The notes under the pieces are model-generated. The model was not told where the DNA came from, did not search any database, and worked only from the letters and a program-made list of their open reading frames with translations. Positions 8,131-63,420 of a DNA stretch of 64,000 bases are shown piece after piece. This stretch comes from Methanocella sp. Its GTDB lineage: Archaea; Thermoproteota; Bathyarchaeia; Bathyarchaeales; Bathycorpusculaceae. The position numbers and the translations under genes were made by a program. Position 1 is the first letter of the stretch; every line of letters starts with the position of its first letter. The DNA lies in NCBI GenBank assembly GCA_050261115.1, contig JBLNCY010000057.1, forward strand, positions 32,001-96,000, written 5' to 3'.

Positions 8131-8169
8131 TTATATATAAAGGGAGGGGGGTCCTTGGCAAAGCAAGAG
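8131..8169 (-). repeat. Dispersed intergenic element, copy 1 (partial)
   Basis: TTATATATAAAGGGAGGGGGGTCCTTGGCAAAGCAAGAG matches the reverse complement of copy 2; ~16 bp beyond the aRF1 stop. Confidence 0.85.
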
Positions 8170-8185
8170 CGTCCAGTGAATCTTT

Positions 8186-9454
8186 TTACTGTATCTTAAA
8201 GCGGAGGAAAGCAGCGATACCGCCAAACGCGTTAAGCAGCATCTGTCCCTCCTCTGTCTCAGTTGATATGACTTCCACCTCAGCGTTAGTCAGCTGCGAC
8301 AAATCCGCGATGTCATCCACAATCTCTTTTTTGTCAACGATTGTATATGAGGGCGCTTTACATCCACCGCAGGGTTTTGTGCTAAGTCCCTGTTCGAAAG
8401 CCTGCATGTCTTTGCCCTTAACTGTGTGCTGCTCCTCAAAGTTGCACGCGCCACATCTGATGGTGACCCGATACAAGTCAAGCTCTTCAGAGAGCAACAC
8501 GGTGCGTACGGCGCCGCTGTTCATGTATCGGCGTACCTCATTTTCGCCATAAGTTATGAAGCCGCTGTCATGGCCGACTTCATAGAGGAATTTCTGCATA
8601 AGCTGCTTCTCCTCTATATAGCGGACTTTTTTCATGATTTCAGGCGCTTTGTCAACAACCTCTTTAACGCCCTGCTCTTCCACATAGGCAGTGTCCACTA
8701 CATCAAGGATCTTGTTTTGCAGTTGATAATTTAGAAATGCGCCCTTCTGGAAATCATACTTTGTCGGGCCCGGACCACCCAGAATGATGCCCTTTAGGTT
8801 CTCCATAGGCAAAAAGACGTCGTTAGCGTGACCCGCTACACGGGTAAAATACTCGGTAAGCTGCATTTCACGTAAACGCTCATAACGCCTCGCTGACTGA
8901 CCACCCGCCCGTGTTTTGCCACCTACACCGCTATGCATCTGCATAACAATGTTTAGATGCTTACCCTGCAACGTAGCAATAGTGGCGTTGCTTGCATCCA
9001 CAAGTAATATACCGTAGGCTTCTTTCTCGCGAAGCATCTCTTGCAGGTGCTCAGTATGGAAGCGGCTGTCACATCGATAAAGAAAAATCCTGATAGGCTC
9101 AGGCGGAATAATAACATAGGATTCCATACGTTCCGTTCCGGGTCCACCGCCGGGCTGCGGCAGGGCGCCAGTGAAGATTACGATGCCGTGTTCACCGGGG
9201 TCTTTGAAGAGTTTGAGTTTCTGTTGCGCCTTAACGATGGCGTCAAGAACGTTTTTGCGGGTGACGTTGGATTTAATGTTGCTTGCAGTACCATACTCGT
9301 TTCGAAGAAGGTTAAGGGCGTCGCTGATCTGCTTGTCAGGTGGCACATAGATGGTGATGAGTTCAGTATGGCTGCCTTCTTTGGCGGCTAATGCGTTGAT
9401 GGTTTTTCTTAACCTGAATAGCTCAAGTGAGCTTCTTTTCTCTGTGGTACTCAA
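8186..9454 (-). CDS. prf1: Peptide chain release factor aRF1
   Basis: TASNIKS, YRCDSRF and GGQSARRYER motifs; CxxC..CxxC Zn-ribbon insert in domain C; TTG start. Confidence 0.97.
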   Translation of the reverse strand: MSTTEKRSSLELFRLRKTINALAAKEGSHTELITIYVPPDKQISDALNLLRNEYGTASNIKSNVTRKNVLDAIVKAQQKLKLFKDPGEHGIVIFTGALPQPGGGPGTERMESYVIIPPEPIRIFLYRCDSRFHTEHLQEMLREKEAYGILLVDASNATIATLQGKHLNIVMQMHSGVGGKTRAGGQSARRYERLREMQLTEYFTRVAGHANDVFLPMENLKGIILGGPGPTKYDFQKGAFLNYQLQNKILDVVDTAYVEEQGVKEVVDKAPEIMKKVRYIEEKQLMQKFLYEVGHDSGFITYGENEVRRYMNSGAVRTVLLSEELDLYRVTIRCGACNFEEQHTVKGKDMQAFEQGLSTKPCGGCKAPSYTIVDKKEIVDDIADLSQLTNAEVEVISTETEEGQMLLNAFGGIAAFLRFKIQ

Positions 9455-9540
9455 AGCGTCTTCACTGAAAGATGTTATAATTCAATACTCTACGTTAAGA
9501 TGAGGAAAATAAAAGTTCCTACTCCAAGAAAGGAGGCGGG

Positions 9541-10560
9541 TTATGCTTTTGGTGCTTTAGCTGGCTTGTCAGCTTTGGGTGCAGGAGGGTCGGGTGGTAA
9601 TCCGAGTGCTTCTTTGAGGTAGGCCTTGAATGGGCCGAGCTTGCCGCCATAGTTGCCTGCCGATATCTTGAGGATACCAGGACACATAAGTGATGCTTGG
9701 ACGCCGACCGCCATAGCTTTCTTGACTGCGTCAAGGGTTAAGCCGTTAATGACGATTTCAAGCACACTTGTACAGCCCTCGGGGACAATGCTGTCAGGTA
9801 CAATGGTTCGTAGGGTTGGGCAGTAAGTGTGGTTGGTGGAGGCTTTAAGCTTGTATTTCATGGAGCCAGCCTTGCTACCTGATCGGCACACGCCGCCTGG
9901 AAACGGCAAGATAACATCTGGAACTTGCGCGTGAATTGCATCTACTGCGGCTTCAGCTGCTGCAAGACACTCCTGGGGGGTCTTTGCAAATATCATATAG
10001 TTGCCGCCTGCTACTGCTTCGGTGGCGCCAAAGCCGTCTTCAACAAAAAAGTTGCCTTCCATCACGGGTATCTTCCAGACTTTACGTCCCCCAATCATGG
10101 CTTTACCTTGGAAGCCGTCGCCGAAGTAGCGGAGGCTGCTGCCGATAAGTAGCACACGTTTGCCTAAAAGTCCGTTGAAGGCTGCTGTGGTTGGGCAAGT
10201 CATGGTGCATTGACCGATGCGGCCCATTAGTGAGTGTTTGAGTTCAAAGCGGTCCTTGTTGTAAATTTGAATTAGGATGCCGGGTCGTTTGTCTGGGGTT
10301 TCACTGGCTGGAACGGTGCGTTCGATGGCTGCTTCAGCGGAAGCGGCGATGACGCTTGTGGCGTAGCCTGTTGTTATGGATGCAGCAGTCTGTGCCCATT
10401 TCTCGTTAGCTGCAGTGATGAGTACACGAGCTGCCCACAGCGGAAACATCTCTGCAAAGGTATCCTCAACCTTCACAACGCCATGAGGAGTATTCACTAG
10501 GTACATCTTTTCTTTTTCGTCATAACCTTGAATTTCCAGCTTGCTACTGTTCGATGACAT
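9541..10560 (-). CDS. ftr: Formylmethanofuran:tetrahydromethanopterin formyltransferase
   Basis: VEDTFAEMF, TPDKRPG, RIGQCTMTCPTTA, LRYFGDG, SGSKAGS, EIVINGL, ISAGNYGGKLG. Confidence 0.95.
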   Translation of the reverse strand: MSSNSSKLEIQGYDEKEKMYLVNTPHGVVKVEDTFAEMFPLWAARVLITAANEKWAQTAASITTGYATSVIAASAEAAIERTVPASETPDKRPGILIQIYNKDRFELKHSLMGRIGQCTMTCPTTAAFNGLLGKRVLLIGSSLRYFGDGFQGKAMIGGRKVWKIPVMEGNFFVEDGFGATEAVAGGNYMIFAKTPQECLAAAEAAVDAIHAQVPDVILPFPGGVCRSGSKAGSMKYKLKASTNHTYCPTLRTIVPDSIVPEGCTSVLEIVINGLTLDAVKKAMAVGVQASLMCPGILKISAGNYGGKLGPFKAYLKEALGLPPDPPAPKADKPAKAPKA

Positions 10561-10740
10561 GAACGAGACCTTGCCTCTTGAGTGGGCTTTTGTATAATTT
10601 AAGAGTTTTCATGTTTTTTCTGGTTTCAAGCTGTGTATTTTTATGGTATTAAACGTTGGTTTTCTTGGCATATTTAGAGTTTAGCAGGGAACGCCGAGTG
10701 CTTGCTGTTAGATTAGGGGTGTTGGATGTTGGATAGTGGT

Positions 10741-10797
10741 CTGTTGCTTTGCCGACCTACCCCCTCCCTTATATATAGAACCAACCACGGGTTCAAC
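10741..10797 (+). repeat. Dispersed intergenic element, copy 2 (reference)
   Basis: CTGTTGCTTTGCCGACCTACCCCCTCCCTTATATATAGAACCAACCACGGGTTCAAC; near-identical to 63364-63420. Confidence 0.93.
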
Positions 10798-10969
10798 TTA
10801 GCCTTGAATGCGCATGTGATTTTGCGGCTATGGGTTGGCTTCTCATTTTTTATGTCCTTCTGTAGTCACTATCCTCTACATAGCAGACTCTAGGCAAACA
10901 CCGCAAAGGGCTATGAAGCGCTTAATTTTTTAAGTCAGACAACCATATCAGAACCGCGAAGAGAGAGAT

Positions 10970-11377
10970 ATGCCGATTAAGTATTTTCCCGCCCCCGAAA
11001 TCAAAAAACAAGTTGACCAGTTAGTGCAGGAATGCGAATTCCATCATGTGGTGCCACAGTTCGTTTTCTGTGTTCGAAGCAAAGGCAGCAAAGCAAAACG
11101 CACCATAGCCCGCATTCATGGACTGGGCAAAATCTGGCAGGGCGTACTTAACCTCCCACCCAGCTACACCATCGAGGTTATTAGCGAAATCTATGACAGG
11201 ATGTCTCCCGAGGATAAGGAGCGCACGTTGATTCATGAGTTGATGCATATCCCTGGCGGCTTTAGCGGCGGCTTTAGGCCTCACAAGGGCTATGTTGAGA
11301 GGAAGAATGTTGAGGCAGTGTATAAGAAACTGCAGAGTGACCGCGCTGCGAGGCGGCAGAAGCGACTTTTTTCCTGA
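10970..11377 (+). CDS. Small HEXXH zinc metallopeptidase (archaeal/phage-type, SprT-like)
   Basis: RSKGSKA..ARIHG..Y.IEVISE..TLIHELMHIP..FSGGFRPH. Confidence 0.8.
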   Translation: MPIKYFPAPEIKKQVDQLVQECEFHHVVPQFVFCVRSKGSKAKRTIARIHGLGKIWQGVLNLPPSYTIEVISEIYDRMSPEDKERTLIHELMHIPGGFSGGFRPHKGYVERKNVEAVYKKLQSDRAARRQKRLFS

Positions 11378-11517
11378 ATAAAACGTGGCGGCATCGGTTA
11401 AAGTTTTTAAGCTTCTTTGCCGCGGTTGTGTTTATTGCAGCTTTAACAAAAGCCATATAAGCCTTAATGGGCAAAGTCACAAGAAAACTTTGCCGTAGAA
11501 CGGGGTTAAACAGTTCA

Positions 11518-13179
11518 ATGAAGCATGTTATGAAAAGTCTAAAGCACAACGGCGTATACGTTCCACCCTATGACCTAAAGGGGTTTAGTGTTAAAATCGC
11601 TGGACAACCAGTTAAATTAACACCTAAAAGCGAGCCTATGGCAGTAGCCTGGGTACGCCGAGTCCTTTCTACCACTATACCCCCACCCGATAACGTCTTC
11701 ACCAAGAACTTTATGCAGGAATTTTTGCAACAACTACAAAAAGAAAACCCCAAAGCCACATTCCTCCAAGAGTTTACCCTCAAATACTTATCAAACATAG
11801 ATAACCCAACCCTCAACAACGGCGGCGTCCAAGCCCTCGACATCGACTTCACCGACATAAAAGCATACATTCTTAACGAAAAGGCCAAAAAAGAAGCCAT
11901 GACCAAAGAGGAGAAAAAGAAACTGGCTGAGGAACGCAAAGTCATACGCCAGGAGTTCCGCGACAAATACGGCTATGCCGAAGTGGACGGTCAACGCCTC
12001 GAAATCGCCAACTGGACCGCTGAACCCAGCTGCCTCTTTGCGGGACGCGGTGACCACCCCCAGCGCGGCAGATGGAAAGAAGGCCCAAGTGAAGAAGACA
12101 TCACCCTCAACCTCTCCCCCGATGCCCCCAAACCCGAAGGCTGGAAGGGCAAAATCATCTGGGAACCCGAAAAGATGTATGTTGCCAAATGGGTTGACAA
12201 ACTAACTGGCAAAGTCAAGTACGTCTGGTTCAGTGACACTGCGTTTCTTAAGCAGAACCGAGAGAAGGAAAAATTCAAAAAAGCTGAGGACCTGGGCAAA
12301 CACATAGACGCCGTAGAGAAACATATTCTCAAAAACCTCTCCGCAAAAGACATCATGCGTCGGAAAACAGCAACTGTTGCCTGGTTGATTCTTGCAGTGA
12401 ACATGAGGGTTGGCGATGAGAAGGACCCAGATGAAGCTGATACGGTGGGCGCCATTACCCTGCGTGATGAGCACATCAGCATTCAAGGTGACCAGGTTAC
12501 CTTTGACTTCTTGGGTAAGGACAGCGTTAGATGGGTAAAAACCGTTCAAGCCCCGCCTCAAGTCATCAAGAACCTCACTGAGTTCAAGCAGGATAAAAAA
12601 GTCCAGTACCTCTTTGAGGGCATCGACAGCAAAACTGTCAGCCGATTCTTATCTGAAAAAGTACCCAAACTCACCGCAAAAGTGTTCCGTACCTGGAAAT
12701 GCACTAAAACAGTCAAAGAAGAACTCGAAAAGAGCGGCGTAACCAAAAACGATCCCGACTACAAAAAGAACTTTGCAGCCAAAATGGCTAACCTCAAAGT
12801 AGCAGAAGTCGCTAACCACAAACGCAAAATCCCACCCACCTATGACCAGCGCATAGCGGAGAAGGAGCGGAAACTAAAGGAACTGGAAGAACAGCTCAAA
12901 GTTAAGAAAAAAGAGGGCAAAAAAATTGAGTCGCTGGAAGGCCGCATTGAGAAAGCCAAACTTGATTTGGAATTGGCTAAGCTTACCCGCGAATACAACT
13001 TGGGCACCTCGCTTAAGAGCTACATTGACCCACGGGCATACGTTAAGTGGGCTAAGAAAGTCAAGTTTGACGTTGAAAAGTTCTATCCCAAGACCCTGCG
13101 CAGCAAATTCAGTTGGGCGCTACAGGCAGGCAGCAAGAAGAGCACGGATGCCTGCGACTCCGAGTGTATAACTCCATGA
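11518..13179 (+). CDS. DNA topoisomerase IB (eukaryote-like)
   Basis: LKHNGVY, GRGDHPQRG; catalytic residues in NMRVG, FLGKDS, KVFRT, ANH and GTSLKSYIDPR. Start is 11518 or 11530. Confidence 0.95.
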   Translation: MKHVMKSLKHNGVYVPPYDLKGFSVKIAGQPVKLTPKSEPMAVAWVRRVLSTTIPPPDNVFTKNFMQEFLQQLQKENPKATFLQEFTLKYLSNIDNPTLNNGGVQALDIDFTDIKAYILNEKAKKEAMTKEEKKKLAEERKVIRQEFRDKYGYAEVDGQRLEIANWTAEPSCLFAGRGDHPQRGRWKEGPSEEDITLNLSPDAPKPEGWKGKIIWEPEKMYVAKWVDKLTGKVKYVWFSDTAFLKQNREKEKFKKAEDLGKHIDAVEKHILKNLSAKDIMRRKTATVAWLILAVNMRVGDEKDPDEADTVGAITLRDEHISIQGDQVTFDFLGKDSVRWVKTVQAPPQVIKNLTEFKQDKKVQYLFEGIDSKTVSRFLSEKVPKLTAKVFRTWKCTKTVKEELEKSGVTKNDPDYKKNFAAKMANLKVAEVANHKRKIPPTYDQRIAEKERKLKELEEQLKVKKKEGKKIESLEGRIEKAKLDLELAKLTREYNLGTSLKSYIDPRAYVKWAKKVKFDVEKFYPKTLRSKFSWALQAGSKKSTDACDSECITP

Positions 13180-13457
13180 GCGTCGTCGAAACCAAAGACG
13201 GCGCCAACCTCACAGTTTTTGTAAAACCCAACTCCCCAAAGTTCAAGATAGAATTTGACGGCACTGAAGTCATTGTTTACTCCACGGAGGAACCCGTCAA
13301 GGGCAAGGTGAATAAGGAGATTATGAAGGAGATGGGGAAGCTTTTGGGGTTGCGTGTGGAGATTGTTTCTGGGTTGACTTCTAAGCAGAAAGTGCTGCTC
13401 TTTAGGGGCATAAGCAAAGCTGAGGTTGAAGCACTGTTAGGTAGCTTACAGGGTTGA
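13176..13457 (+). CDS. DUF167/YggU (UPF0235) family protein
   Basis: VFVKPNS..P.KGKVNKEI..IVSGLTSKQK; ATG 13176 overlaps the TopoIB stop (ATGA). Confidence 0.88.
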   Translation: MSVVETKDGANLTVFVKPNSPKFKIEFDGTEVIVYSTEEPVKGKVNKEIMKEMGKLLGLRVEIVSGLTSKQKVLLFRGISKAEVEALLGSLQG

Positions 13458-13523
13458 AGTGGTTGGTGGATTTGGAAAAACCATAAATTCTAAGACACCC
13501 TAACGCTTCCTTGGTGGGTACAG

Positions 13524-13958
13524 ATGAAAGCAGACCAAGCAACCCAAAAGGGAGTTATACAGGCTTTTAAAGAAATGTTTGAGGCGTACAAAAAGAAAGA
13601 CACCCAAGGCGTCCTTAACTGCTGGGCAAGCGACCCCGATATAGTAATGATTGGGTCAGGTAAGGATGAGAAAAGTGTTGGTGTAGAAAAATTTGTTGAG
13701 AGTCTAACAAGGGATTGGGAGCAAGCCAACATCACCGCCATCGACGTGAAGGATTTCAGCGTCTCAGTCTCGGGGAATGTCGCTTGGCTTAGTTCAGATT
13801 TAACCTTTAACTATACAGTAAAGGAAAAAGCCCTGCAGTTGGCTGGGCGCTTAACGGGAGTTATGGAGAAACGCAACGGAAAATGGCTCTGGATGCAGAT
13901 GCATTACTCTGTTCCTAACGTTAATCAGAAACGCGGCCAATCGTGGCCCAAAAAGTAA
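13524..13958 (+). CDS. NTF2/SnoaL-like domain protein
   Basis: D..MIGSG.DE..G, VSGNVAW, RLTGVMEKRNGKWLWMQMHYS. Confidence 0.82.
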   Translation: MKADQATQKGVIQAFKEMFEAYKKKDTQGVLNCWASDPDIVMIGSGKDEKSVGVEKFVESLTRDWEQANITAIDVKDFSVSVSGNVAWLSSDLTFNYTVKEKALQLAGRLTGVMEKRNGKWLWMQMHYSVPNVNQKRGQSWPKK

Positions 13959-14087
13959 GCTGCAAAAACTGTGGACATAACTGGGCTAGTTCAATGGAGA
14001 AGTACTAGCGCCTTTTCACCATTTCTCGACGGTTATTCTATCATTATTCTTTTGTGCTTTGCATGGTTTGATTTTAGAATTAAAATA

Positions 14088-14100
14088 AAGCGTTTATATC
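14088..14100 (+). promoter_or_regulatory. Putative BRE/TATA promoter of ppcA (possibly leaderless)
   Basis: AAGCGTTTATATC ending ~25 bp before ATG 14126. Confidence 0.55.
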
Positions 14101-14125
14101 CCCCAAGGCTAAGCGTAACTTTGAG

Positions 14126-15724
14126 ATGAAGGTTATGAGCAGCAGCGAAGAAAACCGAATCATTCCAAGAACCATGTCTACCCAGCATCCAGACAACGCA
14201 GTTACACCAGACTGGAGCCGAGACGAAGTAATCGGGGGCAACGCAGAGGTCTTGGAAGCCTTCTATGCATACAGCAGTCTAGGCTGCCAGGAAGTCATGT
14301 GGGACTCTGAAGGCAAAGACGCTGACACCCGCGTGGTTCGAAAGCTGCTCCAGAAGTACTGGGATTACTTTGCAAGCCACACAATCGGCGAAGATCTCTT
14401 CCTAACATATCGTGTTCCCAACCCAAAGATTGAAGGTGCCGAGAAGAAGATCATTGTTGAGACTCTACAGAATATCCCCGTGGCCTATGATGTGGCGACG
14501 TTGGTTTACAAGCGGGAGGTTTCGCCCCTCTTTGAAGTCATCTTGCCCATGACTACCGACGCTAAAGAAATCATCATGCTATACAACTATTACAAAAAAG
14601 CCATAGTTGAAGCAGAAGACGCCAAACTCTACGAGCAAACCACCGTCAAAGACTGGATGGGTCACTTTATGCCCAAAGCCATCAAAGTAATCCCGCTTGT
14701 GGAAGACTTTGACAGCATCCTAAACGTAGACCAAATCATTGCGCCATACATCAAGGCAGTGAAGCCCAAACAGCAACGCATCTTCGTCGCCCGCTCAGAC
14801 CCCGCCCTAAACTACGGTCATATCTGCGCGGTGCTGCTCTCAAAAATCGCATTAAGCAAACTCAAAAAACTCGAAAAACAGACTGAACACACAGCGATAC
14901 ATCCAATCCTTGGGGTGGGCTCAAAACCCTTCCGAGGCCACCTCTCGCCAGATAACATCGACAACTTCTTACAAGAATACCAGGGCCTATCCACAGTCAC
15001 CATCCAATCCGCCTTCAGATACGATTACCCCGCAGACCAAGTCAAAGAAGGCATCCAAACCCTCAACCAACGCCTACCCAACGGGGTCCCCGAATTCATC
15101 GACCCCGAAGAAGAATCCGTTCTCCGCGGCATTCTCTCAAAGTGCAGAAAAGAATACGAACACCAAATCGAAATCATGGCCCCCTTCATCAACGCAGTCG
15201 CAGCCTACGTTCCAGCAAGACGCACAAGAAAACTCCACATCGGACTCTTCGGCTACAGCCGATGCGTCGCAGGGGTATGCCTGCCAAGGGCCATCAGCTT
15301 TGCCAGCGCACTCTACAGCGTCGGTATCCCACCCGAATTCATCGGCCTTAAAGCACTAAACCAGCTAAGCGAACAGGAATGGCAAACCCTCACCAAGAAC
15401 TACATAAAAATGCAGCATGACTTCAAAGTAGTCGGCGAATATGTCTCCTTAAACAACATAAACATGCTCACCGAGTTGAGTCAAATCACAGCTAAACGGT
15501 CAGGCATGAGTGAAGACCAACTAAAAGACGCCCTTGCAAGCTTAATCGAGGACCTAAACGCCGCCGAGCAGAAGCTAAACATCAAGCTGGGCCCCCGAGG
15601 ATTCTCCCAGAGACGACACGAGAACTTTTCAAACAACTTTTTGCTCTCATTCCTGCAGAAGCAAGATGCAGAGGCAAAGGCGGCGCTGGTGGAATCAGCC
15701 AAGCTTAGAAGATGCCTAGGCTAA
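14126..15724 (+). CDS. ppcA: Archaeal-type phosphoenolpyruvate carboxylase
   Basis: IPRTMSTQHPDN, MWDSEGK, FEVILPMT, ARSDPALNYG, PFRGHL, RKLHIGLFGYSR, LPRAISF. Confidence 0.96.
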   Translation: MKVMSSSEENRIIPRTMSTQHPDNAVTPDWSRDEVIGGNAEVLEAFYAYSSLGCQEVMWDSEGKDADTRVVRKLLQKYWDYFASHTIGEDLFLTYRVPNPKIEGAEKKIIVETLQNIPVAYDVATLVYKREVSPLFEVILPMTTDAKEIIMLYNYYKKAIVEAEDAKLYEQTTVKDWMGHFMPKAIKVIPLVEDFDSILNVDQIIAPYIKAVKPKQQRIFVARSDPALNYGHICAVLLSKIALSKLKKLEKQTEHTAIHPILGVGSKPFRGHLSPDNIDNFLQEYQGLSTVTIQSAFRYDYPADQVKEGIQTLNQRLPNGVPEFIDPEEESVLRGILSKCRKEYEHQIEIMAPFINAVAAYVPARRTRKLHIGLFGYSRCVAGVCLPRAISFASALYSVGIPPEFIGLKALNQLSEQEWQTLTKNYIKMQHDFKVVGEYVSLNNINMLTELSQITAKRSGMSEDQLKDALASLIEDLNAAEQKLNIKLGPRGFSQRRHENFSNNFLLSFLQKQDAEAKAALVESAKLRRCLG

Positions 15725-15774
15725 CCCGCCAACCCACTTCTTGTTTCCAAACTCGTCTGCGGGTTTTGTGCGCT

Positions 15775-16857
15775 TTAGCCGAGTAGTTTTGCAAGGCTCG
15801 GAACTTTCTTTAACACAAACACAATCCCCGCAGATAGGGTAAACACGATTACCGCAAAAATGGGCACATCAATCAGGACTATGTCGGTTATCGAGTTCAC
15901 CCAGAAACCAAACACTCCATTGGAAACCAACGTGACTAGTATTATCATGTGTATTAGGTAGATGGGGAGCGTGTTTTGGCTTACCCACTGTATGATTCCA
16001 CCGAGGATTTTGCGGTTGCCCAGGCTGTTGAAGTCTAGCGAGATTAACGCAAAAAACAGAGCGGCGCTTGCCAGTATGATGGTGGGGCTGACGTAGCTAT
16101 GGAAGAACCCCGTGTACTGCTCACCCAAGATACTCGTAAGCAGCCAGCTACTTGCGACGGTTCCCAGCAAGCCGCCTAGCATTAGAAGGAGCGCTCTGAG
16201 TTTTGGCATGCTGGTTTGCAGCAGATATAGGCCTAAGAGATAGTAACCGACCCAGTCTATGAGAATAAATGGGTAGGGATAATAGTTGAGTTGGGGCAAA
16301 AACACATGGATGGCAGGCGTTAGGGTGGTGCCGGCGAACCATATAATCAGCAGGTACAGGTAGAGTTTGCGGTCTAAATGCCTAACCAGCACACGGAGCA
16401 CAGGAGTTAAAGCATACAGCCCCATGAGCAGGTAGAGGTACCAGAGGTGAGTGTATGCACCGCTTGCAAGTCCCTGCACCATACTCATGAGCGTGAGGGG
16501 CTGTCCCAGCACCCCAAAAGTCCATGCAAAGTAGATTACTGTCCAAAAGATGAAGGGCAACCCAATACGGTCTAGCCGCTTCTTGTAGAATACCTTAAGC
16601 GGCTCCTCTTCTCGATTGGGGTCAAGCAGCAGCACACCGGTTAACATGACAAATAGGGGGACCCCTAAAAGCCCTGCAGCGGCATAGGTGGTGGTTGATA
16701 GCCAATTAACAACATCCATACCTGTAACTGCGGGGTTCAAGAAGCGGTAAGGAAACCCAGAGCTATGAAGCAGGATAACCATGAAAATAGCGATGAAGCG
16801 GATTACATCAATGGTATAGTTAGCGGCAACTGGTTTCTCCCCCAGACTTCCCACCAC
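15775..16857 (-). CDS. Acyltransferase family 3 membrane protein (O-acetyltransferase)
   Basis: IDVIRFIAIFMVILLH, VPLFVMLTG, HLWYLY, PIYLIH; ~10 TM segments. Confidence 0.9.
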   Translation of the reverse strand: MVGSLGEKPVAANYTIDVIRFIAIFMVILLHSSGFPYRFLNPAVTGMDVVNWLSTTTYAAAGLLGVPLFVMLTGVLLLDPNREEEPLKVFYKKRLDRIGLPFIFWTVIYFAWTFGVLGQPLTLMSMVQGLASGAYTHLWYLYLLMGLYALTPVLRVLVRHLDRKLYLYLLIIWFAGTTLTPAIHVFLPQLNYYPYPFILIDWVGYYLLGLYLLQTSMPKLRALLLMLGGLLGTVASSWLLTSILGEQYTGFFHSYVSPTIILASAALFFALISLDFNSLGNRKILGGIIQWVSQNTLPIYLIHMIILVTLVSNGVFGFWVNSITDIVLIDVPIFAVIVFTLSAGIVFVLKKVPSLAKLLG

Positions 16858-16922
16858 AGCACCCCTGCCATGCTAACCCATCTATGAATAAGCTGCTAAA
16901 TAAAATTAATCAAAAGGGTAAC

Positions 16923-19196
16923 CTAGACTTTACCTGATAGTACCTTCTTTAGTTCAATCCAAAATGTCGCCAAAAACGACACCCCAACCACCAGCACCCA
17001 ATCCGAAGCACCCAAACTCGTGATTTGGAGGGCAGCCTGAGTAGCGGACAGAGAGGTACCAACAGCTAACAAGAAAACCGCCAGCAAACCCCATAGCAGC
17101 ATAATCCTGTTTGTTAGGATGCCATGTTTGAACAGCGGAGTGTTTCCGGTTCGGAGGTTTAGCGCCAAAAAGACCTGGCTAAACAGCAAAGTGGCGAAAG
17201 CGACGGTTCGGGCATGGGTTATTTCGGCAGTTGAGTAGTAGGTGAATAGGTAGGTGGCGGTGACGGCTAGAGTTAGGCTTAATGCGCCTATCAAGAGCGA
17301 CCGAAGCATGCGTTCATCCATGAAGGTTGCGTAAGGCGCCTGCGGCTTGTTCATTGCGCCTCTCTCCTGAGGTTCCCCAACAAAGAGTACAGATGCAACT
17401 AAATCCACAAACAACACAAGCACCAAGACCTGGATGGGCGCAAACGGCAAAGGAACACCCAACAAGACCGGAACCATAAAAGTCAGTGCCAAAGCGGCTT
17501 TACTGGCAAGGTAAAACCGGATGCCCTTACGAATGTTACCGTTGAACCTTCGGCACTCACTTATTGCGTTTTCGATGGCGGCCAAATTATCATCCACTAA
17601 AACTATGTCTGCAGCTTCCCTAACATCAGCCCCATTGGTGCCCATAGCGATGCCAATGTGCGCTTTTTTAAGTGCGGGTACGTCGTCTATGTCGGTGCCG
17701 GTTACTGCAACGGTCTCGCCCGTTGCTCTTAGAAGCTGAATTATGCGCAGCTTATCCCCCGGAGCAATGTTAGCGAAAACAGGGGTAATCTTGAGGGCTT
17801 CTTTTAGGACTTCATCGGGCATGGTTGCCATTTCCTCGGCACTCAAGACATGGGTATTAGGGATTCCGATTTGACCTGCAAGGGTTTTGGCGGTTTGGGG
17901 GTGCTCGCCGGTAATCAATAGGATGCGTATGCCCGCTTTTTGGCAGTTGCGGATGGCGCTTGGTACCCCTAGGCGGGGAGGGTCTATGAAGCCGATGATG
18001 CCGACAAACACAATCTCCCTTTCAGCCTCATCGACCGACTCGTCTGGGTGTAGTCGGCGGTAGCCGAATGCTAAAAGACGCTCGCCCGCATGTGCCATCC
18101 GTGCCGCCGCCCTAGAGGCTTCCGCCCGTAGCTCGTCGGTTAGGGGTGTTTCTTGGCCTTCTAGGAGTATGCGGTTTGATGTTGCCAGTAGCTTTTCGGG
18201 TTCGCCGCTCGTTAAGGCAACAGTTGAGTTGCCGTACTGGTAAATGTATGTGACTAGTTTTTGTTTATTGTCTAAGCGTAGTTCGTCTTTGAGAATCCAG
18301 TTGCTTGTTACTGCAGTCTTGTCTATGCCCACCTGTTTGAGCCGCTCCAAAATGGCCTTAGCCATCGAGTTAGAGAGTTGGTTGTCGGGGGTGTCACTTG
18401 CTAAAAACCCTGTGCGTAGGGCGGATTTCTCGTTCTCCCCAAACTCCCTCGAAGCATGTATGGTACCGTCAAAGTAGAGGTGCTCAACACGCAGCTTGTC
18501 CTCTGTTAAAATGCCTGCTATGTCGGTGGCGATGATGCTTACATTGCCCAAGTTTTCTGCTGCATTCATCCGCTTTACGATGGCGCCTTTGCATGACAAT
18601 GCCAAGCTACCTATCCCAAGAGCCGTAGCGATGATTAGCGGTAGCTCTCTAGGAACAAAGGCAAACGCTAAAGCAAGACCATAAAGCACTGCACCGGCGG
18701 GGTAATCTTGAAGTCCCGGTAAGCCTCGAATGTAACCTAGCAGGGGAATCAGTATAGCAAGGAATACTGCCATCCAAACCAGGGTTCTTGGCAGATGCTT
18801 CATAGCGATAGGTTCTCGGAGCTGCTCGCTCCTTAGAATTGTTGACGTTTGTGGTACCAGCCGATGCAGAGCCGAGATGGCCCGGTTAGTGCGGTACTCA
18901 TTCCAGACGTTAACCAGCACCAAAAGAACAAACACCATTGCGACTGTAGCTATGGCAGTTAATCCGTCACCAGTAACTATGCCCAAAGCACTGTAGAGCA
19001 CGCCTATAAAGAGCAGCAGAAGAGTCATGGGCTCAGTGGTTTTCTTCTTAAGAATGTCTAAGAGGCGGATTTTGGGTTCCTGAACCACCGTGTTCTTGCC
19101 ATACTTACATGCCTCTTGCTCTGTACCCCTTTGGGTGTCTGAGCCTAAAGCTGCAGCACCATCTTCGGAGTGTTGGGTGTATGGCGGAGGATTCAT
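16923..19196 (-). CDS. Degenerate P-type (P2-like) cation ATPase: actuator domain missing, catalytic motifs mutated
   Basis: P-type architecture (GERLLAFG, FVGIIGFIDPPR, PALKKAHIGIAMG), but DKTGTLT reads DIAGILT, TGD reads TGE, GDGxND reads GTDIDD, and there is no TGES. Confidence 0.85.
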   Translation of the reverse strand: MNPPPYTQHSEDGAAALGSDTQRGTEQEACKYGKNTVVQEPKIRLLDILKKKTTEPMTLLLLFIGVLYSALGIVTGDGLTAIATVAMVFVLLVLVNVWNEYRTNRAISALHRLVPQTSTILRSEQLREPIAMKHLPRTLVWMAVFLAILIPLLGYIRGLPGLQDYPAGAVLYGLALAFAFVPRELPLIIATALGIGSLALSCKGAIVKRMNAAENLGNVSIIATDIAGILTEDKLRVEHLYFDGTIHASREFGENEKSALRTGFLASDTPDNQLSNSMAKAILERLKQVGIDKTAVTSNWILKDELRLDNKQKLVTYIYQYGNSTVALTSGEPEKLLATSNRILLEGQETPLTDELRAEASRAAARMAHAGERLLAFGYRRLHPDESVDEAEREIVFVGIIGFIDPPRLGVPSAIRNCQKAGIRILLITGEHPQTAKTLAGQIGIPNTHVLSAEEMATMPDEVLKEALKITPVFANIAPGDKLRIIQLLRATGETVAVTGTDIDDVPALKKAHIGIAMGTNGADVREAADIVLVDDNLAAIENAISECRRFNGNIRKGIRFYLASKAALALTFMVPVLLGVPLPFAPIQVLVLVLFVDLVASVLFVGEPQERGAMNKPQAPYATFMDERMLRSLLIGALSLTLAVTATYLFTYYSTAEITHARTVAFATLLFSQVFLALNLRTGNTPLFKHGILTNRIMLLWGLLAVFLLAVGTSLSATQAALQITSLGASDWVLVVGVSFLATFWIELKKVLSGKV

Positions 19197-19446
19197 CAGG
19201 CAGTCCCTAAATTAGTATAAGTCGTGTGCTAGTTGCGGGCTAAACACGCCCTAAAAGGTTTGCAACAGTAATCAATAGAATCCTGCTGGCAGCTGTTTTT
19301 AGTTTTTATCCGTTCATGTTTATTTGCCTGCTTTTCTTTTGACAGAAAGGTGCTAAATGAACCGCTACCACAGTTTTAGTATAAGAACAGCAACGATACA
19401 TCTGGTAGTGTTTAGGTAGGTTCTGCAGGGTGGTTTCCAAACCAGA

Positions 19447-19503
19447 GTTCAACCTGTGGTTGGTTCTATATATAAGGGAGGGGGTCCCTCGGCAAAGCAA
19501 CAG
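19447..19503 (-). repeat. Dispersed intergenic element, copy 3
   Basis: GTTCAACCTGTGGTTGGTTCTATATATAAGGGAGGGGGTCCCTCGGCAAAGCAACAG (reverse orientation to copy 2). Confidence 0.93.
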
Positions 19504-19683
19504 CAAAAATGCATAAGAACATAGACAGCATCTGGCGAGTGCCCGATAGAGGAGCGGCATAGTAGGGAGAACTGCTGCTACACCCTATACGTTTATGGGG
19601 ATGTATATGCCTGAAAGGTGTTGTATTATGCGCATAAGCCTTATATTTTCAAAATCAACCTTCTCTGACTGAAGGACAAACGT

Positions 19684-20760
19684 ATGCATAAAAAACTCTT
19701 GATTCCCGGTCCAACAGAAGTAAGTAAAGAAGTACTCAGTGAACAAAACCAATATTTAATCGGGCACAGAGAAAAAGAGTTCTCAACATTATACGGCGGA
19801 ATCACCGATAAAATCGCCAAATTCTTCCAGTTACCCGCCGATTACAAACCCACCGTTACCACAGGCTCCGGAACGCTATGGTTTGACATAATCGGCCGAA
19901 GCATAGTAAAAGAAAAAGCACTCGCATGCGTCAACGGCGCCTTTAGCCAACGCTGCGCACAAACCCTCATCTCATGCGGCAAACAAACCGACATACTAGA
20001 AGTAGAAATGGGCAAAGCAATCAAACCCGAGATGGTCGCCGAGAAACTCGCCACCGGCAAATACGACACCTTAACTGTTTGCCACAACGAAACCAGCACG
20101 GGTGTAAGAAGTCCAATCGCCGAAATCGGCAAAATGGTCAAAAAAGAATATCCCGGCATAATCTTTGCCGTGGACGCGGTCTCGTCTATGGCAGGCGACA
20201 AAACGCTGCCCAATGAACTCAACTGCGACATCGTGTTTGGCAGCACACAGAAATGCTTCGCACTACCCCCCGGCTTAGCAGTAGCGCTAGTCTCTGATCG
20301 CGCAATCGAACGCGCTAAAACCGTTCCTAACCGAGGCGCCTACACCGATCTAGTTGACATGTTCGAGTTCGAAAAGAAACATCAAACACCCTTCACGCCA
20401 AACGTTAGCTTACTCTATGCACTCAACAAACGCATGGACCTTCTACTGGAGGAAACCTACGATAAAGTCTACCAGCGCCACCTCGACATGGCGCAGTATA
20501 CTCAGGCGTGGGCAAAGAAGCACTTCAGCATGTTCCCCGAGGCAGGATATGAATCCATCACTGTTAGCTGCATAAACAGCAACGGCAAAGACGTTAACGC
20601 AATGAGCAAAAGGCTTGCTGAGGAAAAGGGCTACTTGATTTCTGCGGGTTACGGTAAACTTAAGGATAAAACCTTCCGCATCGGCCACATGGGCGAATGG
20701 AACCTAGACGGCATCAAAGACGTACTTGCTAGTATAGATGAGATTTGGGGATTGAAGTGA
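19684..20760 (+). CDS. Class V PLP aminotransferase (serine-pyruvate / phosphoserine aminotransferase-like)
   Basis: LIPGPTEV, HNETSTG, VDAVSS, STQKCFALPPG, TPFTP, FRIGHMG. Confidence 0.92.
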   Translation: MHKKLLIPGPTEVSKEVLSEQNQYLIGHREKEFSTLYGGITDKIAKFFQLPADYKPTVTTGSGTLWFDIIGRSIVKEKALACVNGAFSQRCAQTLISCGKQTDILEVEMGKAIKPEMVAEKLATGKYDTLTVCHNETSTGVRSPIAEIGKMVKKEYPGIIFAVDAVSSMAGDKTLPNELNCDIVFGSTQKCFALPPGLAVALVSDRAIERAKTVPNRGAYTDLVDMFEFEKKHQTPFTPNVSLLYALNKRMDLLLEETYDKVYQRHLDMAQYTQAWAKKHFSMFPEAGYESITVSCINSNGKDVNAMSKRLAEEKGYLISAGYGKLKDKTFRIGHMGEWNLDGIKDVLASIDEIWGLK

Positions 20761-34625: not shown

Positions 34626-34971
34626 CTGCTGATATGGGCGGTTTGGATATAAGAATTAACCCTCAAACTGCCCTAGCACAGATACCTTGACAAAAGTTAG
34701 GAGAGAGATGCAAAAAAATTCATTGAGTAAACAAATAATCCCTCCCTTTTGCTTCGAACGGTATGGGTAGATTCAGCAAAACTTAGGTGCTTTAGCGGCT
34801 GTTATCCCATCCTCTATGGCTCTACAGCAAGAGACTTAAAACCGTTAACTTGCCTCTGCCTTGAGAATTAACACTCTAAGGCTCGAAACACATCACTAAA
34901 GATGAAAGATAGGCCTCATTCATTTTTATGTGGCGTTCAGGTTTAGTTAGGTCTTGCACTTACAAGCCATT

Positions 34972-35025
34972 GTTGAACCCTTGGTTGATTCTATATATAA
35001 GGGGGGGTCTATGGCAGAGCAATAG
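34972..35025 (-). repeat. Dispersed intergenic element, copy 4
   Basis: GTTGAACCCTTGGTTGATTCTATATATAAGGGGGGGTCTATGGCAGAGCAATAG. Confidence 0.9.
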
Positions 35026-35205
35026 ACGCTGTTTATTTGTTGGGTGCCGGACTAATTGCAGAACCAAAAACAACAAACCGATTAATTCCCAGCTTTCACA
35101 CTGGGTCCCTAGCAGGCGTTGGGTTGCTATCAAACCTGCCATTTTGTACCTAAAAATGTGCTAAACCGCCATTCCAGCGGCAGCTTTTGGGTTTTCCTTT
35201 TATAG

Positions 35206-39377: not shown

Positions 39378-39635
39378 ATGTCAATTAGAACCTCAACCGC
39401 TGTCAATTTGCAGTTCACCGACGCAAAACAAATCGATATACTCCTATCCGCGTTATCTCCCGAAGCAATGGCGCCGGCGACTCGACGATCATGTGTCACC
39501 TTGAATAGGGATGGTGTGTGTTTGAGGTTAACTGTTGAAGCCGAAGACACTGTTGCGTTAAGGGCTACTCTAAACACTTATCTGCGCTGGATAAACTCCG
39601 CCCTAAACGTCCTTGAAGCGATTAAGAAAGCTTAA
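39378..39635 (+). CDS. pcc1: KEOPS complex subunit Pcc1
   Basis: AL.PE..R..L.VEAED..ALRA.LNTYLRW; canonical operon position. Confidence 0.88.
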   Translation: MSIRTSTAVNLQFTDAKQIDILLSALSPEAMAPATRRSCVTLNRDGVCLRLTVEAEDTVALRATLNTYLRWINSALNVLEAIKKA

Positions 39636-39652
39636 CTGTAATGGCGAGGGTT

Positions 39653-39708
39653 CTGTTGCTCTTGCGACCTACCCTCTCCCTTATATATAACCAACCATGG
39701 GTTTAACC
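39653..39708 (+). repeat. Dispersed intergenic element, copy 5
   Basis: CTGTTGCTCTTGCGACCTACCCTCTCCCTTATATATAACCAACCATGGGTTTAACC, 17 bp after the pcc1 stop. Confidence 0.9.
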
Positions 39709-39770
39709 TATGATTCGGGTATTTTGGCAAAATTTTAATATGTACTAAGCTAACGGCTGGCGGTAGCTAA

Positions 39771-40202
39771 TCACAGGTTACCCCGTTTCCACACCTTTAC
39801 TGTCTCATAGGCGAGAAACACAACAATGACCGACGTAGCAACCAAAGAAAAAACATATGCCTGATACAACACTGACGGCCGAAGAACCGTTAATTCAATC
39901 AATAAAACTGCGACTGCAAACATTGTATAAAAGAAGTATCTTGGAACTAAGAATCGGCTAATCTTTACACTGTTCTCCAGTAGGTATTTATTGACTGTGA
40001 ATCCGCCTGTTTCCCTTTTGAGTAACCCTGCATCCTCCAGCTTGGAAAGATGGTAGGTGGCAACTGAAGAACTGCTGAAATTCATCGCCCTCTGTAACTC
40101 GCGGGTACCGACGGGTTTGCGACTTTTAAGGAGAAACCGATACACTTCAAGAGTCGTACCCTTTAGCACTTCTTTTGATTCATCGGTAACCTCAGAGTTC
40201 AT
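39771..40202 (-). CDS. Winged-HTH (ArsR-like) regulator with two C-terminal TM helices
   Basis: LKGTTLEVY..L..P.GTRELQRAM.FSSSSVA.YHL.KL..AGL, then two hydrophobic helices. Confidence 0.82.
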   Translation of the reverse strand: MNSEVTDESKEVLKGTTLEVYRFLLKSRKPVGTRELQRAMNFSSSSVATYHLSKLEDAGLLKRETGGFTVNKYLLENSVKISRFLVPRYFFYTMFAVAVLLIELTVLRPSVLYQAYVFSLVATSVIVVFLAYETVKVWKRGNL

Positions 40203-47057: not shown

Positions 47058-47062
47058 ACTAC

Positions 47063-58713: not shown

Positions 58714-58739
58714 ACCCTACCTAAGCCCTTCAAGTGCAA

Positions 58740-58796
58740 GTTGAACCATGGGTTGACTCTATTTATGAGGGAGGAGATCCCTCGGCAGAGCAACAG
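58740..58796 (-). repeat. Dispersed intergenic element, copy 6
   Basis: GTTGAACCATGGGTTGACTCTATTTATGAGGGAGGAGATCCCTCGGCAGAGCAACAG. Confidence 0.88.
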
Positions 58797-58945
58797 GCCG
58801 CCGCCATGACACCTCCAAGATGTTAGCAAAAAGAGTCCAAACGATGCCCTGCGTCCTCTGTGGAAACCAGCGTTAAATCCTAAAAGGGACCAAAATTATT
58901 TAATTCCACCGCCGACACTTCTCAAAGCAATTAGTCGTTAGTCAT

Positions 58946-61246: not shown

Positions 61247-61265
61247 AGAAAGGCGAAAAGAAATC

Positions 61266-62672
61266 ATGAAAATTGTTATGAAGTTCGGTGGAACCAGCGT
61301 AGGCACAGGCGAGAACATACGCCACGTGGCCGACTTAGTTGCACAGTACAGCAAAGAACACAAAATCGCCGTCGTCGTCTCGGCACTTGCAGGCGTCACT
61401 AACAGCCTAATCGAAACCGGCTGCAAGGCACAGAAAAGCGACCAAAAAAACATCGAAGCATTCACCTCTAGCCTGCTAAAGAAGCACACAGACGCCATAG
61501 CCACGGCGATTACAAGTAAAAGCATCCAAAAAGAAGTAACCGAAATAACACAAAAAAGCATCGCCGAACTAGAAAAAGTCCTAACAGGCATCTGCTATGT
61601 GGGCGAATTAACCCCGAAATCAAAAGACTACGTAATGTCGTTTGGCGAACGCCTCTCTGCACCAATAGTTTGGGGAGCAATCAAAGACCACAACATACAG
61701 AGCCAATTCTTCACCGGCAAAGAATCAGGCATAGTTACCGACTCCAACTTTGGCGAAGCAGAACCCCTCATGAACTACACAACCCACCTACTACGTGAAC
61801 GATTGGAGCCTTTGATGGAGCAAGGCACTATCCCAGTTGTCACAGGCTTCATAGCCGCAAACCAAGACGGCATCGTAACCACCGTCGGCCGCGGAGGCAG
61901 CGACTACACAGCCACCATACTCGGCGTAGCCCTAAAAGCCGACGAGGTATGGATATGGACAGACGTAGACGGCATCATGACCACCGATCCCAAACTTGTC
62001 CCAGCTGCACGCATGCTACCCCAACTAAGCTATCAAGAGGCAGCCGAAATGGCTATCTTCGGCGCCAAAGCCATGCATCCACGAGCTCTCGGCCCAGTAT
62101 CTAAAGAAAACATACCTGTGCGCATAAGAAACACCCAAAACCCATCCAATATGGGCACACTAATCACAAAGGCGCCGGCGGCTAACGAGACTAAACCCGT
62201 AAAGGCAGTTGCCATGATTAAAGACGTCGGTATGCTAAACGTCTATGGCGCTGGCATGGTGGGTGCGCCGGGTAGCTATGCAAAGGTCTTTGATGTGCTT
62301 GGCAGAAATAACATAAACGTCATGATGATTTCCGCCGCTGCATCCGAAGCCAACATATCCATGATAGTGAAACGCTCAGTGCTGGGCAGAGCCGTAAGCA
62401 ATATCGAAATCGCATTGCAGGAAAGAGGCGGCATAGTCAGTGAAGTCACAACCGAAGATGACGTTGCAGTTATCGCGGTTATGGGTGCTCACATGAAAGG
62501 TACGCTGGGTGTGGCGTCGAAAATCTTTAGCATCGTAGCCAAGATGGGTATAAACATCCGCATGATCGCACAAGGCAGCTCCGAACTCAACATCAGCTTT
62601 GTTGTGAAGGAGAAGGATGGCGCTGCCGTCGTTAGAGCAATCCATGAAGAGTTTAACCTCGACAAAGCCTAA
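61266..62672 (+). CDS. lysC: Aspartate kinase (with ACT domains)
   Basis: VMKFGGTSV, VVVSA, GRGGSDYTA, WTDVDGI.T.DP, GAK.MHP, QGSSE.NIS. Confidence 0.95.
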   Translation: MKIVMKFGGTSVGTGENIRHVADLVAQYSKEHKIAVVVSALAGVTNSLIETGCKAQKSDQKNIEAFTSSLLKKHTDAIATAITSKSIQKEVTEITQKSIAELEKVLTGICYVGELTPKSKDYVMSFGERLSAPIVWGAIKDHNIQSQFFTGKESGIVTDSNFGEAEPLMNYTTHLLRERLEPLMEQGTIPVVTGFIAANQDGIVTTVGRGGSDYTATILGVALKADEVWIWTDVDGIMTTDPKLVPAARMLPQLSYQEAAEMAIFGAKAMHPRALGPVSKENIPVRIRNTQNPSNMGTLITKAPAANETKPVKAVAMIKDVGMLNVYGAGMVGAPGSYAKVFDVLGRNNINVMMISAAASEANISMIVKRSVLGRAVSNIEIALQERGGIVSEVTTEDDVAVIAVMGAHMKGTLGVASKIFSIVAKMGINIRMIAQGSSELNISFVVKEKDGAAVVRAIHEEFNLDKA

Positions 62673-62772
62673 CTTTTCCATTTTTGTTTCTGTGTGCTTG
62701 CAGGCACAACTATTTTTATTTCTTGAATATCTGAACCCTTTAGTTTTAGCAGTAGAATACTGGGAGTTATGA

Positions 62773-63255
62773 ATGCGTAACTTACTTCGTAACCGGAAAG
62801 GCTCTGGGAAGATTATTGCTTTAGTTCTCATCATAATCGTTGTCTTTGCGTTGGTGAGTTTGGCTATCTACTATTATTATGCGTACAATAACCTGACTTT
62901 CAATTTAAACCAAGTTAGGTTAGGCGAGGTAAGCTCGAATTCTCTAACGCTAAATGTCCAGATCGCCATTAACAACACGTATCTGCTACCAGTTTACATC
63001 CCAAGCGGCAGCTTCACGCTGTACCTTAATGATCAACGGCTGGGAACGGGCACGTTTAACTCGATAACAGTCGGAGGAAACAATCAAGGCATAGTTACAG
63101 TGCCAGTTACAATTAATGCTGCTGACGTTCCGTCTGCTGCTTTCGGTGTGCCAACAGGCGGCGGCACGGTGACTTTAACTGTTCAGGGCTCGGCTAATCT
63201 GGTGGTGTTTAGTGTACCATTCAATGCTACTCTCTACAATGCACAATTAACTTAG
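62773..63255 (+). CDS. Membrane-anchored LEA_2/WHy-domain-like protein
   Basis: N-terminal TM, then beta-sandwich pattern L.V.I.INN...P.YIP...F.LYLN...LG.G. Confidence 0.7.
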   Translation: MRNLLRNRKGSGKIIALVLIIIVVFALVSLAIYYYYAYNNLTFNLNQVRLGEVSSNSLTLNVQIAINNTYLLPVYIPSGSFTLYLNDQRLGTGTFNSITVGGNNQGIVTVPVTINAADVPSAAFGVPTGGGTVTLTVQGSANLVVFSVPFNATLYNAQLT

Positions 63256-63363
63256 GCAACTGCCCAGCAGCCGTAAGTATCCTCTATGATGTATCTGAAA
63301 AAGATTACTTGTCCACTGAAGACTTGCTGTTTTGGGTGACGTAGTGGTAATTCGGCTGCTGTT

Positions 63364-63420
63364 CTGTTGCTTTGCCGAGCTACCCTTCCCTTATATATAG
63401 AACCAACCAAGGGTTGAACC
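63364..63420 (+). repeat. Dispersed intergenic element, copy 7
   Basis: CTGTTGCTTTGCCGAGCTACCCTTCCCTTATATATAGAACCAACCAAGGGTTGAACC. Confidence 0.93.

Follow-up and report, generated by a model that had tools for sequence, protein, structure and literature searches.

A dispersed family of elements of about 70 bases around a TATA-like core in a Bathyarchaeia genome, tentatively read as a promoter-type cassette

What kind of element recurs between unrelated genes of an archaeal chromosome, in both orientations? The question was raised by a stretch of 64,000 bases (47.9% G+C; hereafter the window) from a Bathyarchaeia genome (GCA_050261115.1). The window corresponds to contig positions C57:32001-96000 of an assembly of 2,148,294 bases in 66 contigs that is 95% complete (genome G000). 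A preliminary description of the window had named seven copies of a short intergenic element and had left two readings for it, a family resembling repetitive extragenic palindromes (REP) or miniature inverted-repeat transposable elements (MITE), or a conserved cassette that binds several proteins. In the analysis reported here the element was followed through the whole genome and its relatives; other G codes designate the genomes of relatives, L codes the loci that were read, and C codes the contigs of G000. We tentatively regard the family as an amplified promoter-type cassette around a TATA box, the copies of which would mostly give rise to noncoding or antisense transcripts, a reading that we consider possible and hold with reserve.

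Size, anatomy and constraint of the family

A profile built from the six full copies of the window was used to scan all of G000, a scan that the preliminary description had proposed. The scan gave 129 matches at E<10, of which 111 reach E<=1e-3 and 86 reach E<1e-6, and the same profile gave no match at E<10 in a shuffled genome. Both the sequence and the profile recovered the seven copies already named (six full and one partial), at their places and with their modules in the order described, and the two orientations noted for the window are found throughout the genome. Two weak copies that had been proposed at 42918 and 47154 gave no profile match even at E<10. The density in the genome, one copy per 19 kb, is about half of that in the window, so the total comes to roughly 110-130 copies and not to the "hundreds" that had been projected; 111 were found genome-wide. 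Copies were not in excess at contig ends (14 observed versus 10.2 expected; p = 0.14). [quoted passage not shown]

When copies are aligned on their A/T core (TATA), the element is about 70 bases long and modular around that core. The L module starts with the motif TGTTGCTYTGCC, located ~45 nucleotides (nt) before the TATA, and runs through 7-10 variable bases to the C-tract CCCCTCCC. After the C-tract comes the core TTATATATAG, which is followed by AGA[GC]TCA. Nearly every copy has the TATA and the C-tract upstream of it; indels within both are tolerated.

Copies differ in what follows the core. In class A, to which all six full copies of the window belong, a 35-nt module (R_A; TCAAC-N6-GGTTSAAC-N5-CTTGAA, or in finer detail CAACC-N3-GGTT[GC]AAC, five variable bases and CTTGAA) fills the stretch between the TATA and ~30-40 nt downstream, the region in which transcription would be predicted to start, and similarity fades beyond it. 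In class B, a conserved G/T-rich module of ~125 nt (R_B) takes the place of R_A. A profile of R_B only found 36 copies in G000, none of them in the window (the nearest is at C57:17740). The printed sequences show L and the A/T core upstream in all 36, with strict regular expressions flagging the TATA in 33/36 and the C-tract in 29/36. About ten copies, including copy 1 of the window, have L and the core followed by unique sequence. Two copies are chimeric, one R'-TATA-R (C22:17469) and one L-TATA-L' (C22:33664), at a distance of 16.2 kb, and a pattern scan of the genome found no further chimeras.

Two details of the preliminary description stood in part. The AACC-N3-GGTT dyad is present, but variation in its left half is not matched by compensating changes in the right; G119, a sister species, has the motif as a direct repeat, TTCAAC-N6-TTCAAC. 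The outer block that copies 3 and 4 have in common is real, but it is found downstream of R in only these two of the 111 copies; one further copy (on C46) has the motif on the L side. Three class A copies (window 63421-63500, C6:25196 and C58:2904) have another ~60 similar bases downstream of R (GAGGAAAG ... TGGTCATCTTGGAAGC), which suggests a longer sub-family unit. The sole base skew in the flanks is a T-richness upstream of L where a gene ends there.

Conservation was evaluated in the 46 best class A copies over 68 core columns and 1,035 pairs. Mean pairwise identity was 69% and the maximum was 88%, with none of the 1,035 pairs above 95%. Mismatches per column were over-dispersed (index, 8.0; chi-square, 692 on 67 degrees of freedom), in a test that may be inflated because the copies were chosen with a profile from the six window copies, which favours those columns. 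This caveat weighs against the promoter-type reading; it is countered by the recurrence of the same blocks in other species, for example in the sister species G119 with its own variants. Nineteen of the 68 columns had at most 2 mismatches in 46 copies, and 14 columns were at least 40% variable. The near-invariant blocks (TGTTGCT, GCC, the C-tract, TATA, TCAAC, GGTT.AAC and CTTG) are separated by free spacers. Such old copies with 19 of 68 columns nearly invariant point to motif-wise constraint at the level of DNA. To judge from these alignments, the block pattern is that of adjacent protein-binding sites rather than that of a decaying transposon.

Promoter features, gene context and RNA libraries

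Archaeal promoters carry a TFB recognition element (BRE) directly upstream of a TATA box, which itself is located ~25-30 nt before the transcription start, and the C-tract holds the BRE position. In the mechanism that we propose, the cassette would act as double-stranded DNA, with TATA-binding protein (TBP) and transcription factor B (TFB) assembling on the C-tract and the TATA. One sequence-specific factor might read the L motif and a second one the R motif, the latter being placed where a repressor would stand in the way of the polymerase. Transcription would begin ~25-35 nt downstream of the TATA, towards R. Because the copies are found in any orientation to genes, the products would mostly be noncoding, antisense or long-leader transcripts, and a few copies may act as promoter for the gene that follows. 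The family would have multiplied by a copy mechanism that leaves no transposon signature, and since that amplification selection would have held the motif positions while the spacers decayed. Amplification and function are mutually compatible readings.

Two relatives show the module with the start-codon spacing of an ordinary promoter. In G011 (L024), the ATG that opens an FAD-type protein is preceded at ~27 nt by the C-tract and TTATATAAA. G087 (L087) has L, the C-tract and the TATA ~30 nt ahead of the ATG of the ortholog of C52:2061-3542 in G000, a gene that has a different, ordinary TATA in G000 itself. In both relatives the module is apparently used as an ordinary forward promoter. In G069 and G119, the L motif has a second C-tract and TATA ~27 nt upstream of it, an arrangement like that of tandem promoter units. 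A few copies in G000 are 69-93 nt before the next start codon; at C10:51820 (69 nt) and C22:37387 (92 nt), for example, there is scarcely space for a further promoter in between.

As in a canonical archaeal BRE/TATA promoter, there is a TATA of 8-9 nt with a conserved tract upstream, and the distance to the start in the relatives is 27-30 nt; the element differs in having a C-rich tract at the BRE position and another 25-40 nt of conserved sequence on each side. The multi-protein binding cassette of the preliminary description, arranged around a TATA box, fits better than its REP/MITE-like reading, given the motif-wise conservation, the lack of RNA structure and the canonical start-codon distance in two relatives. 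Its proposed dyad binder is not secured, because the dyad is not kept as a dyad across species.

Positions relative to genes were evaluated with 2,314 crude gene calls that cover 86% of G000. All copies had been described as intergenic, which genome-wide holds for 87 of the 111 copies as being outside called genes, the calls being crude and 86% of the genome being called as coding. For these 87 copies, the forward and backward neighbours presented start and start in 17 cases, start and end in 22, end and start in 23, and end and end in 20, with 5 at a contig edge, as expected if the element is indifferent to gene orientation. In the forward direction 41/87 copies face a gene start and 44/87 a gene end, and the downstream genes are unrelated.

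A number of observations weigh against the promoter-type reading. There is no orientation preference, whereas gene promoters should avoid sites between two gene ends, some of which are gaps of only ~135 nt; likewise, the next gene after R_B presents its start in 18 and its end in 18 of the 36 class B copies. Ordinary G000 promoters are of the form TTTAAATA or TTTATATA, starting 40-54 nt ahead of the start codon; upstream they show only a weak preference for A, and they lack a C-tract. The TATA of the element in G000 is 69-538 nt from the next start on the same strand, and the PALP gene, tRNA genes and CRISPR leaders have TATA boxes of their own. Thus, the element is mostly not the main promoter of its neighbours in G000. 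The number of TFB genes does not follow the family. The family is also dispensable: 92 of the 120 genus genomes have none, among them G014, whose closeness to G000 at three compared loci is about that of G050. Finally, copying from a master sequence would be a simpler account of the species-specific consensus sequences described below than selection alone.

The same observations bear on the alternative that the copies simply serve adjacent protein genes as ordinary promoters, the whole set being the regulon of a single transcription factor or an extra TFB. The arrangement in G011 and G087, and in the few G000 copies 69-93 nt before a start codon, is in keeping with this alternative. However, orientation to genes is random, with 20/87 copies between two gene ends, the neighbours have no common theme, TFB counts do not follow the family, and 70 nt of conserved sequence far exceeds the length of a factor site, so that a regulon of this kind appears very improbable. 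An extra TFB tied to the family was rejected: G064, G085, G135 and G082 have 4 TFB domain matches each, like most family-free genomes.

Other specific promoter roles were considered and rejected. Only 6 of 41 tRNA genes have a copy within 600 nt upstream (4 forward and 2 reverse), and the tRNA genes have their own TATA, which does not suit a promoter of stable RNAs. The genes downstream of class B copies are not a set of paralogs: those adjoining the 36 copies include only three related proteins. A role as CRISPR leader promoter did not hold either: only one array (C16:30212) has a class A copy, ~190 nt upstream, and the leader has its own TATA. Nor is the element a CRISPR repeat, in agreement with the preliminary description, since its copies are ~19 kb apart in both orientations and the repeat of this genome is a different sequence of 37 nt. 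That repeat, which ends in ATTGAAAC, forms arrays at C9:8862-10153, C16:368-484 and C16:30212-31197, and the three arrays have in common a leader of ~110 nt with a TATA of its own.

Part of the window (10001-20000) is present in 24 public runs, 23 of which are recorded as RNA, mostly from anaerobic digesters and sludge. Four runs were compared with window 7800-20200 as assembled contigs, in which strand and ends are unreadable, so contig ends near elements were not used. Contigs X1 8049-8707 and X6 8072-8439 run from the eRF1 gene through copy 1, and contigs join the element to its flanks at four other copies (C6:117270, C10:75695, C19:40465 and C6:34500). Copies 2 and 3 and the gene at 10970-11377 are in bins with next to no depth, and nothing was drawn from these gaps. 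The contigs that bridge copy 1 and those joined to the other four copies count in favour of the promoter-type reading; for the same reading the library data are also a weakness. As contigs only, they give no start, strand or binding, and contigs run through L and the TATA at several loci, which means that the cassette is also inside longer transcripts or that DNA is present in the libraries.

Joining of the element to its flanks at five loci could also reflect an element that works as RNA, either as a linear motif of untranslated regions, the sense and antisense copies of which could pair, or, for class B, as G/U-rich small RNAs of ~100 nt. Many copies begin 0-20 nt past the stop codon of the upstream gene (backward distances to gene ends are 37-68 nt from the TATA centre), class B is conserved for ~125 nt past the TATA, and a helix of CAGCAAC with GTTTGCTG is possible in many class B copies, all of which is compatible with this alternative. 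However, on neither strand did alifold give a consensus structure, be it for L, class A or class B, and folding energies were close to those of shuffled sequences (mean minimum free energy z-scores, -0.74 and -0.42). Even the 5' part of R_B had a mean z-score of only -0.9, with 8/36 copies below -1.5. In addition, the first T5 run after R is found at scattered distances, so that a regular terminator was rejected, and indels in the C-tract and TATA are tolerated. Rfam gave no match at gathering score in the window, and none at E<=1 on the window copies or on 20 class B loci. A structured RNA was therefore rejected as the main reading, on the lack of an alifold structure and the weak z-scores, and function at the RNA level in either form seems improbable.

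Distribution among relatives and modes of spread

A strict core pattern was found at 49 places in G000 and at two in G007; 39 other relatives had none. When 120 genomes of the genus were scanned with a sequence-only model from 26 class A copies, 28 matched. Matches numbered at least 36 in both G000 and G119, 28 in G064, 25 in G088, 20 in G135, 19 in G075, 17 in G085, 16 each in G050 and G082, and 11 in G069. In a draw from the order, 9 of 151 genomes matched, and beyond the genus these were the sister-genus genome G162 (9 matches) and two single weak matches. Judging from these scans, the family is confined to one genus and its sister genus and is patchy there. The copies of G119 have their own consensus, CCCCTATATATAGATTCAACGGCAGGTTCAACTTGCAATTG, which differs from that of G000 at positions that are constant within each genome.

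Some copies occupy corresponding places in different species, which counts in favour of the promoter-type reading. A diverged L, C-tract and TATA, directed away from the PALP operon and upstream of it, are found in G000 (copy 6) and at two metagenomic loci, L166 (90% amino acid identity; two modules) and L169 (87%), and the gene on the other side differs each time. Copies beside orthologous genes were found in the same configuration in G043, G064 and G002, and reversed in the same gap in G110. At the site in G050 that is syntenic to copy 5, a C-tract and TATA are followed by an open reading frame (ORF) of ~70 amino acids. The surroundings of the orthologous operon, 504 kb in 80 relatives, gave only 1 profile match. 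In the nearest metagenome relatives (L116 and L117; 88% amino acid identity), LEA_2 and copy 7 are missing between the same neighbours. The flanking genes in the window are the aspartate kinase gene and a convergent gene; in L116 and L117 they adjoin, ~96 nt apart.

A patchy distribution of this kind brings to mind a selfish non-autonomous mobile element (MITE-, REP- or REPIN-like) with a TATA-like core, which spread by transposition and is now mostly decaying. Copy number ranges from 0 to >100 among species of one genus, with matches in 28 of 120 genomes, and each species has its own consensus. The copies are intergenic, indifferent to gene orientation and located at synteny breaks, and the missing LEA_2 and copy 7 and the single match in 504 kb from 80 relatives would also be in keeping with mobility. 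However, the hallmarks of such elements were not found. When the first 28 nt of 46 class A copies were compared with the last 28 nt, the longest inverted match averaged 4.09 nt versus 4.03 ± 0.11 nt for shuffled ends, and the longest direct repeat in a copy's own flanks averaged 4.17 nt versus 4.11 ± 0.14 nt in swapped flanks. These controls bear out the preliminary observation that terminal inverted repeats and target-site duplications are lacking. A hairpin in L was rejected, as some copies pair (GTCTAT..ATAGAC, GTCTCTTG..CAAGAGAC) but a copy's own arms matched no better than permuted ones (mean, 3.35 nt versus 3.22 ± 0.09 nt; maximum, 3.46 in 500 permutations).

Candidate transposases gave a similar picture. 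Y1 transposases (PF01797) are found in 39 of the 120 genus genomes, with none in G000, G064, G075 or G085, and G119 is not among the 39. There was no TnpB domain over the cut-off and no IS630-type transposase (DDE_3) in G000, a search that did not extend to other transposase families; the genome has one DDE_Tnp_1 and four integrases. Neither L nor R flanked a transposase gene in any locus read, and mobilisation by RAYT/IS200 or by the other transposases searched for was rejected because there was no partner in G000. The lack of young copies (maximum identity, 88%), decay that is motif-wise and not uniform, boundaries that fade rather than end sharply, and copies at orthologous places across species also argue against transposition. 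Thus, the REP/MITE-like reading of the preliminary description fails for want of terminal inverted repeats, target-site duplications, a supported hairpin, a Y1 gene and copies above 88% identity, and a mobile element of any such type appears rather unlikely.

The chimeric copies raise a different possibility, that the element is a site of recombination or chromosome architecture in which the palindromic TATATATA is the crossover core and L and R are protein-binding arms. The ~110 copies would then be points of inversion and of reshuffling of segments via a site-specific recombinase or a repair route. The only L-TATA-L' and R'-TATA-R copies are both on C22; an exchange between two direct copies inside the palindromic core, inverting the segment that separates them, would be expected to leave such a reciprocal pair. 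By our own arithmetic, the chance that two random sites are that close is ~1.5%. In G002, a copy lies between two genes whose G000 orthologs each have a copy, on different contigs, and one end of an inversion relative to G050 is at copy 2. On the other hand, L and R are not mutual inverted repeats, unlike the usual arms of recombinase sites, operon boundaries are usual breakpoints anyway, and ~110 active sites would endanger the genome. The proposed inversion on C22 is unreadable in the synteny of 40 genus genomes, as there are too many rearrangements around this segment. We consider a recombination site to have a low probability.

Several observations were made at the same loci. The segment inverted relative to G050 is window 10917-15724; one breakpoint is in the gap of copy 2, and the order in G119 differs. 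Next to the L-TATA-L' chimera, ~140 nt (C22:33758-33905; locus L196:1442-1589) are conserved at 75-85% in most genus genomes. They overlap an ORF of 47 amino acids with CxxC-like motifs on the minus strand and have no Rfam match.

Among viral contigs there were 6 exact matches to a 19-nt core, five of which are one unrelated sequence. A contig of 30.6 kb that is filed as viral has three tandem modules and one single module (L205:3380-3600 and 6754-6820), which surround a two-gene operon homologous to C43:209-3252 of G000. This contig may be host or provirus DNA.

Window copies and comparison with known systems

The seven copies of the window and their surroundings are listed in Table 1. Their neighbours (eRF1, FTR, a eukaryote-type topoisomerase IB, a P-type ATPase, an aminotransferase, DUF488, proteasome alpha, Pcc1, a helix-turn-helix (HTH) protein, a PQ-loop protein, the PALP enzyme and LEA_2) have no common theme.

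Table 1. Copies of the element in the window, with strand, composition, profile E value and neighbouring genes
Copy	Position	Strand	Composition	E value	Context
1	8125..8172	-	partial: L module, C-tract, TATATATA, no R module; profile match 8132-8171(-)	5.5e-4	begins ~14 nt past eRF1 stop codon (8186); convergent-gene gap
2	10729..10810	+	full class A (L, TATA, R_A)	3.2e-23	divergent: FTR 9541-10560(-) / phage-metallopeptidase-like gene 10970-11377(+)
3	19434..19515	-	full class A	4.6e-22	divergent: P-type ATPase 16923-19196(-) / aminotransferase 19684-20760(+)
4	34959..35031	-	full class A, C-tract shortened	2.6e-17	divergent: DUF488 34029-34625(-) / proteasome alpha 35276-36004(+)
5	39640..39719	+	full class A	3.4e-18	almost fills 135-nt gap; convergent: Pcc1 39378-39635(+) / HTH protein 39771-40202(-)
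6	58727..58808	-	full class A, TATA degenerate (TCATAAATAG)	5.1e-20	PQ-loop gene end (58713) / PALP gene start (58946); orientation away from PALP
7	63352..63431	+	full class A	1.1e-21	convergent: LEA_2 62773-63255(+) / gene 63533-64132(-)

The topoisomerase gene at 11467-13179 (Topoisom_I_N, Topoisom_I and Topo_C_assoc domains) is of the eukaryote type; the archaeal genome that carries it has genes for FTR, eRF1, Pcc1 and the proteasome as well. A weak match to group II intron D1-D4-6 at 62442-62639, inside the aspartate kinase gene (19 bits versus a gathering score of 49; E, 0.29), is most likely due to chance.

Correia elements of Neisseria have terminal inverted repeats and a TA duplication, and REP/REPIN sequences have hairpins that are served by a RAYT transposase. 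None of these hallmarks (terminal inverted repeats, TA duplication, hairpin and RAYT) was found in the family described here. Correia, ERIC and REP/REPIN elements resemble it in being small, dispersed, intergenic and long-lived, in reaching about a hundred copies or more, and in that some carry promoters. Correia, ERIC and REP/REPIN elements are given as mobile elements with functional promoters in PMC3575422, and REPINs are the subject of a further report (PMC8049555).

Promoter-carrying repeats are also found in an archaeal virus. According to the report on halovirus HF2, its intergenic repeats (class I, 58 bp) carry promoters that drove a reporter, and long counter-transcripts were seen (PMC8707807). 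The two families have in common an archaeal origin, a length of ~60 bp, an A/T-rich promoter motif, and conservation of sequence and position among relatives. The HF2 repeats are, in the same source, viral, few and placed before genes, whereas the family described here has ~110 chromosomal copies in any orientation and is known from sequence alone.

A further parallel is provided by the putative mobile promoters, or promoter reuse, of prokaryotes, in which groups of highly similar promoter-like sequences stand before unrelated genes (PMC3575422). Both there and here the sequences are promoter-like, occur before unrelated genes and have no known mobile element attached. In that text, putative mobile promoters are defined as upstream regions of genes and mostly form small groups (PMC3575422). 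In contrast, the family of G000 is large and has a fixed anatomy of 70 nt, and about one copy in two faces no gene start.

Small dispersed repeats with promoters are thus already known in bacteria and in one archaeal virus. In the literature consulted, we found no description of a chromosome-wide archaeal family around a TATA box without a transposon hallmark. If the copies are active, they would provide around a hundred sites from which noncoding or antisense transcription starts, in an archaeon that is uncultured and occurs in RNA libraries from anaerobic digesters. Active copies would also constitute a natural series of ~110 variants of one promoter for studies of how sequence is read around the TATA. 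With its patchy spread and a consensus proper to each species, the family makes the multiplication of promoters without transposases directly testable.

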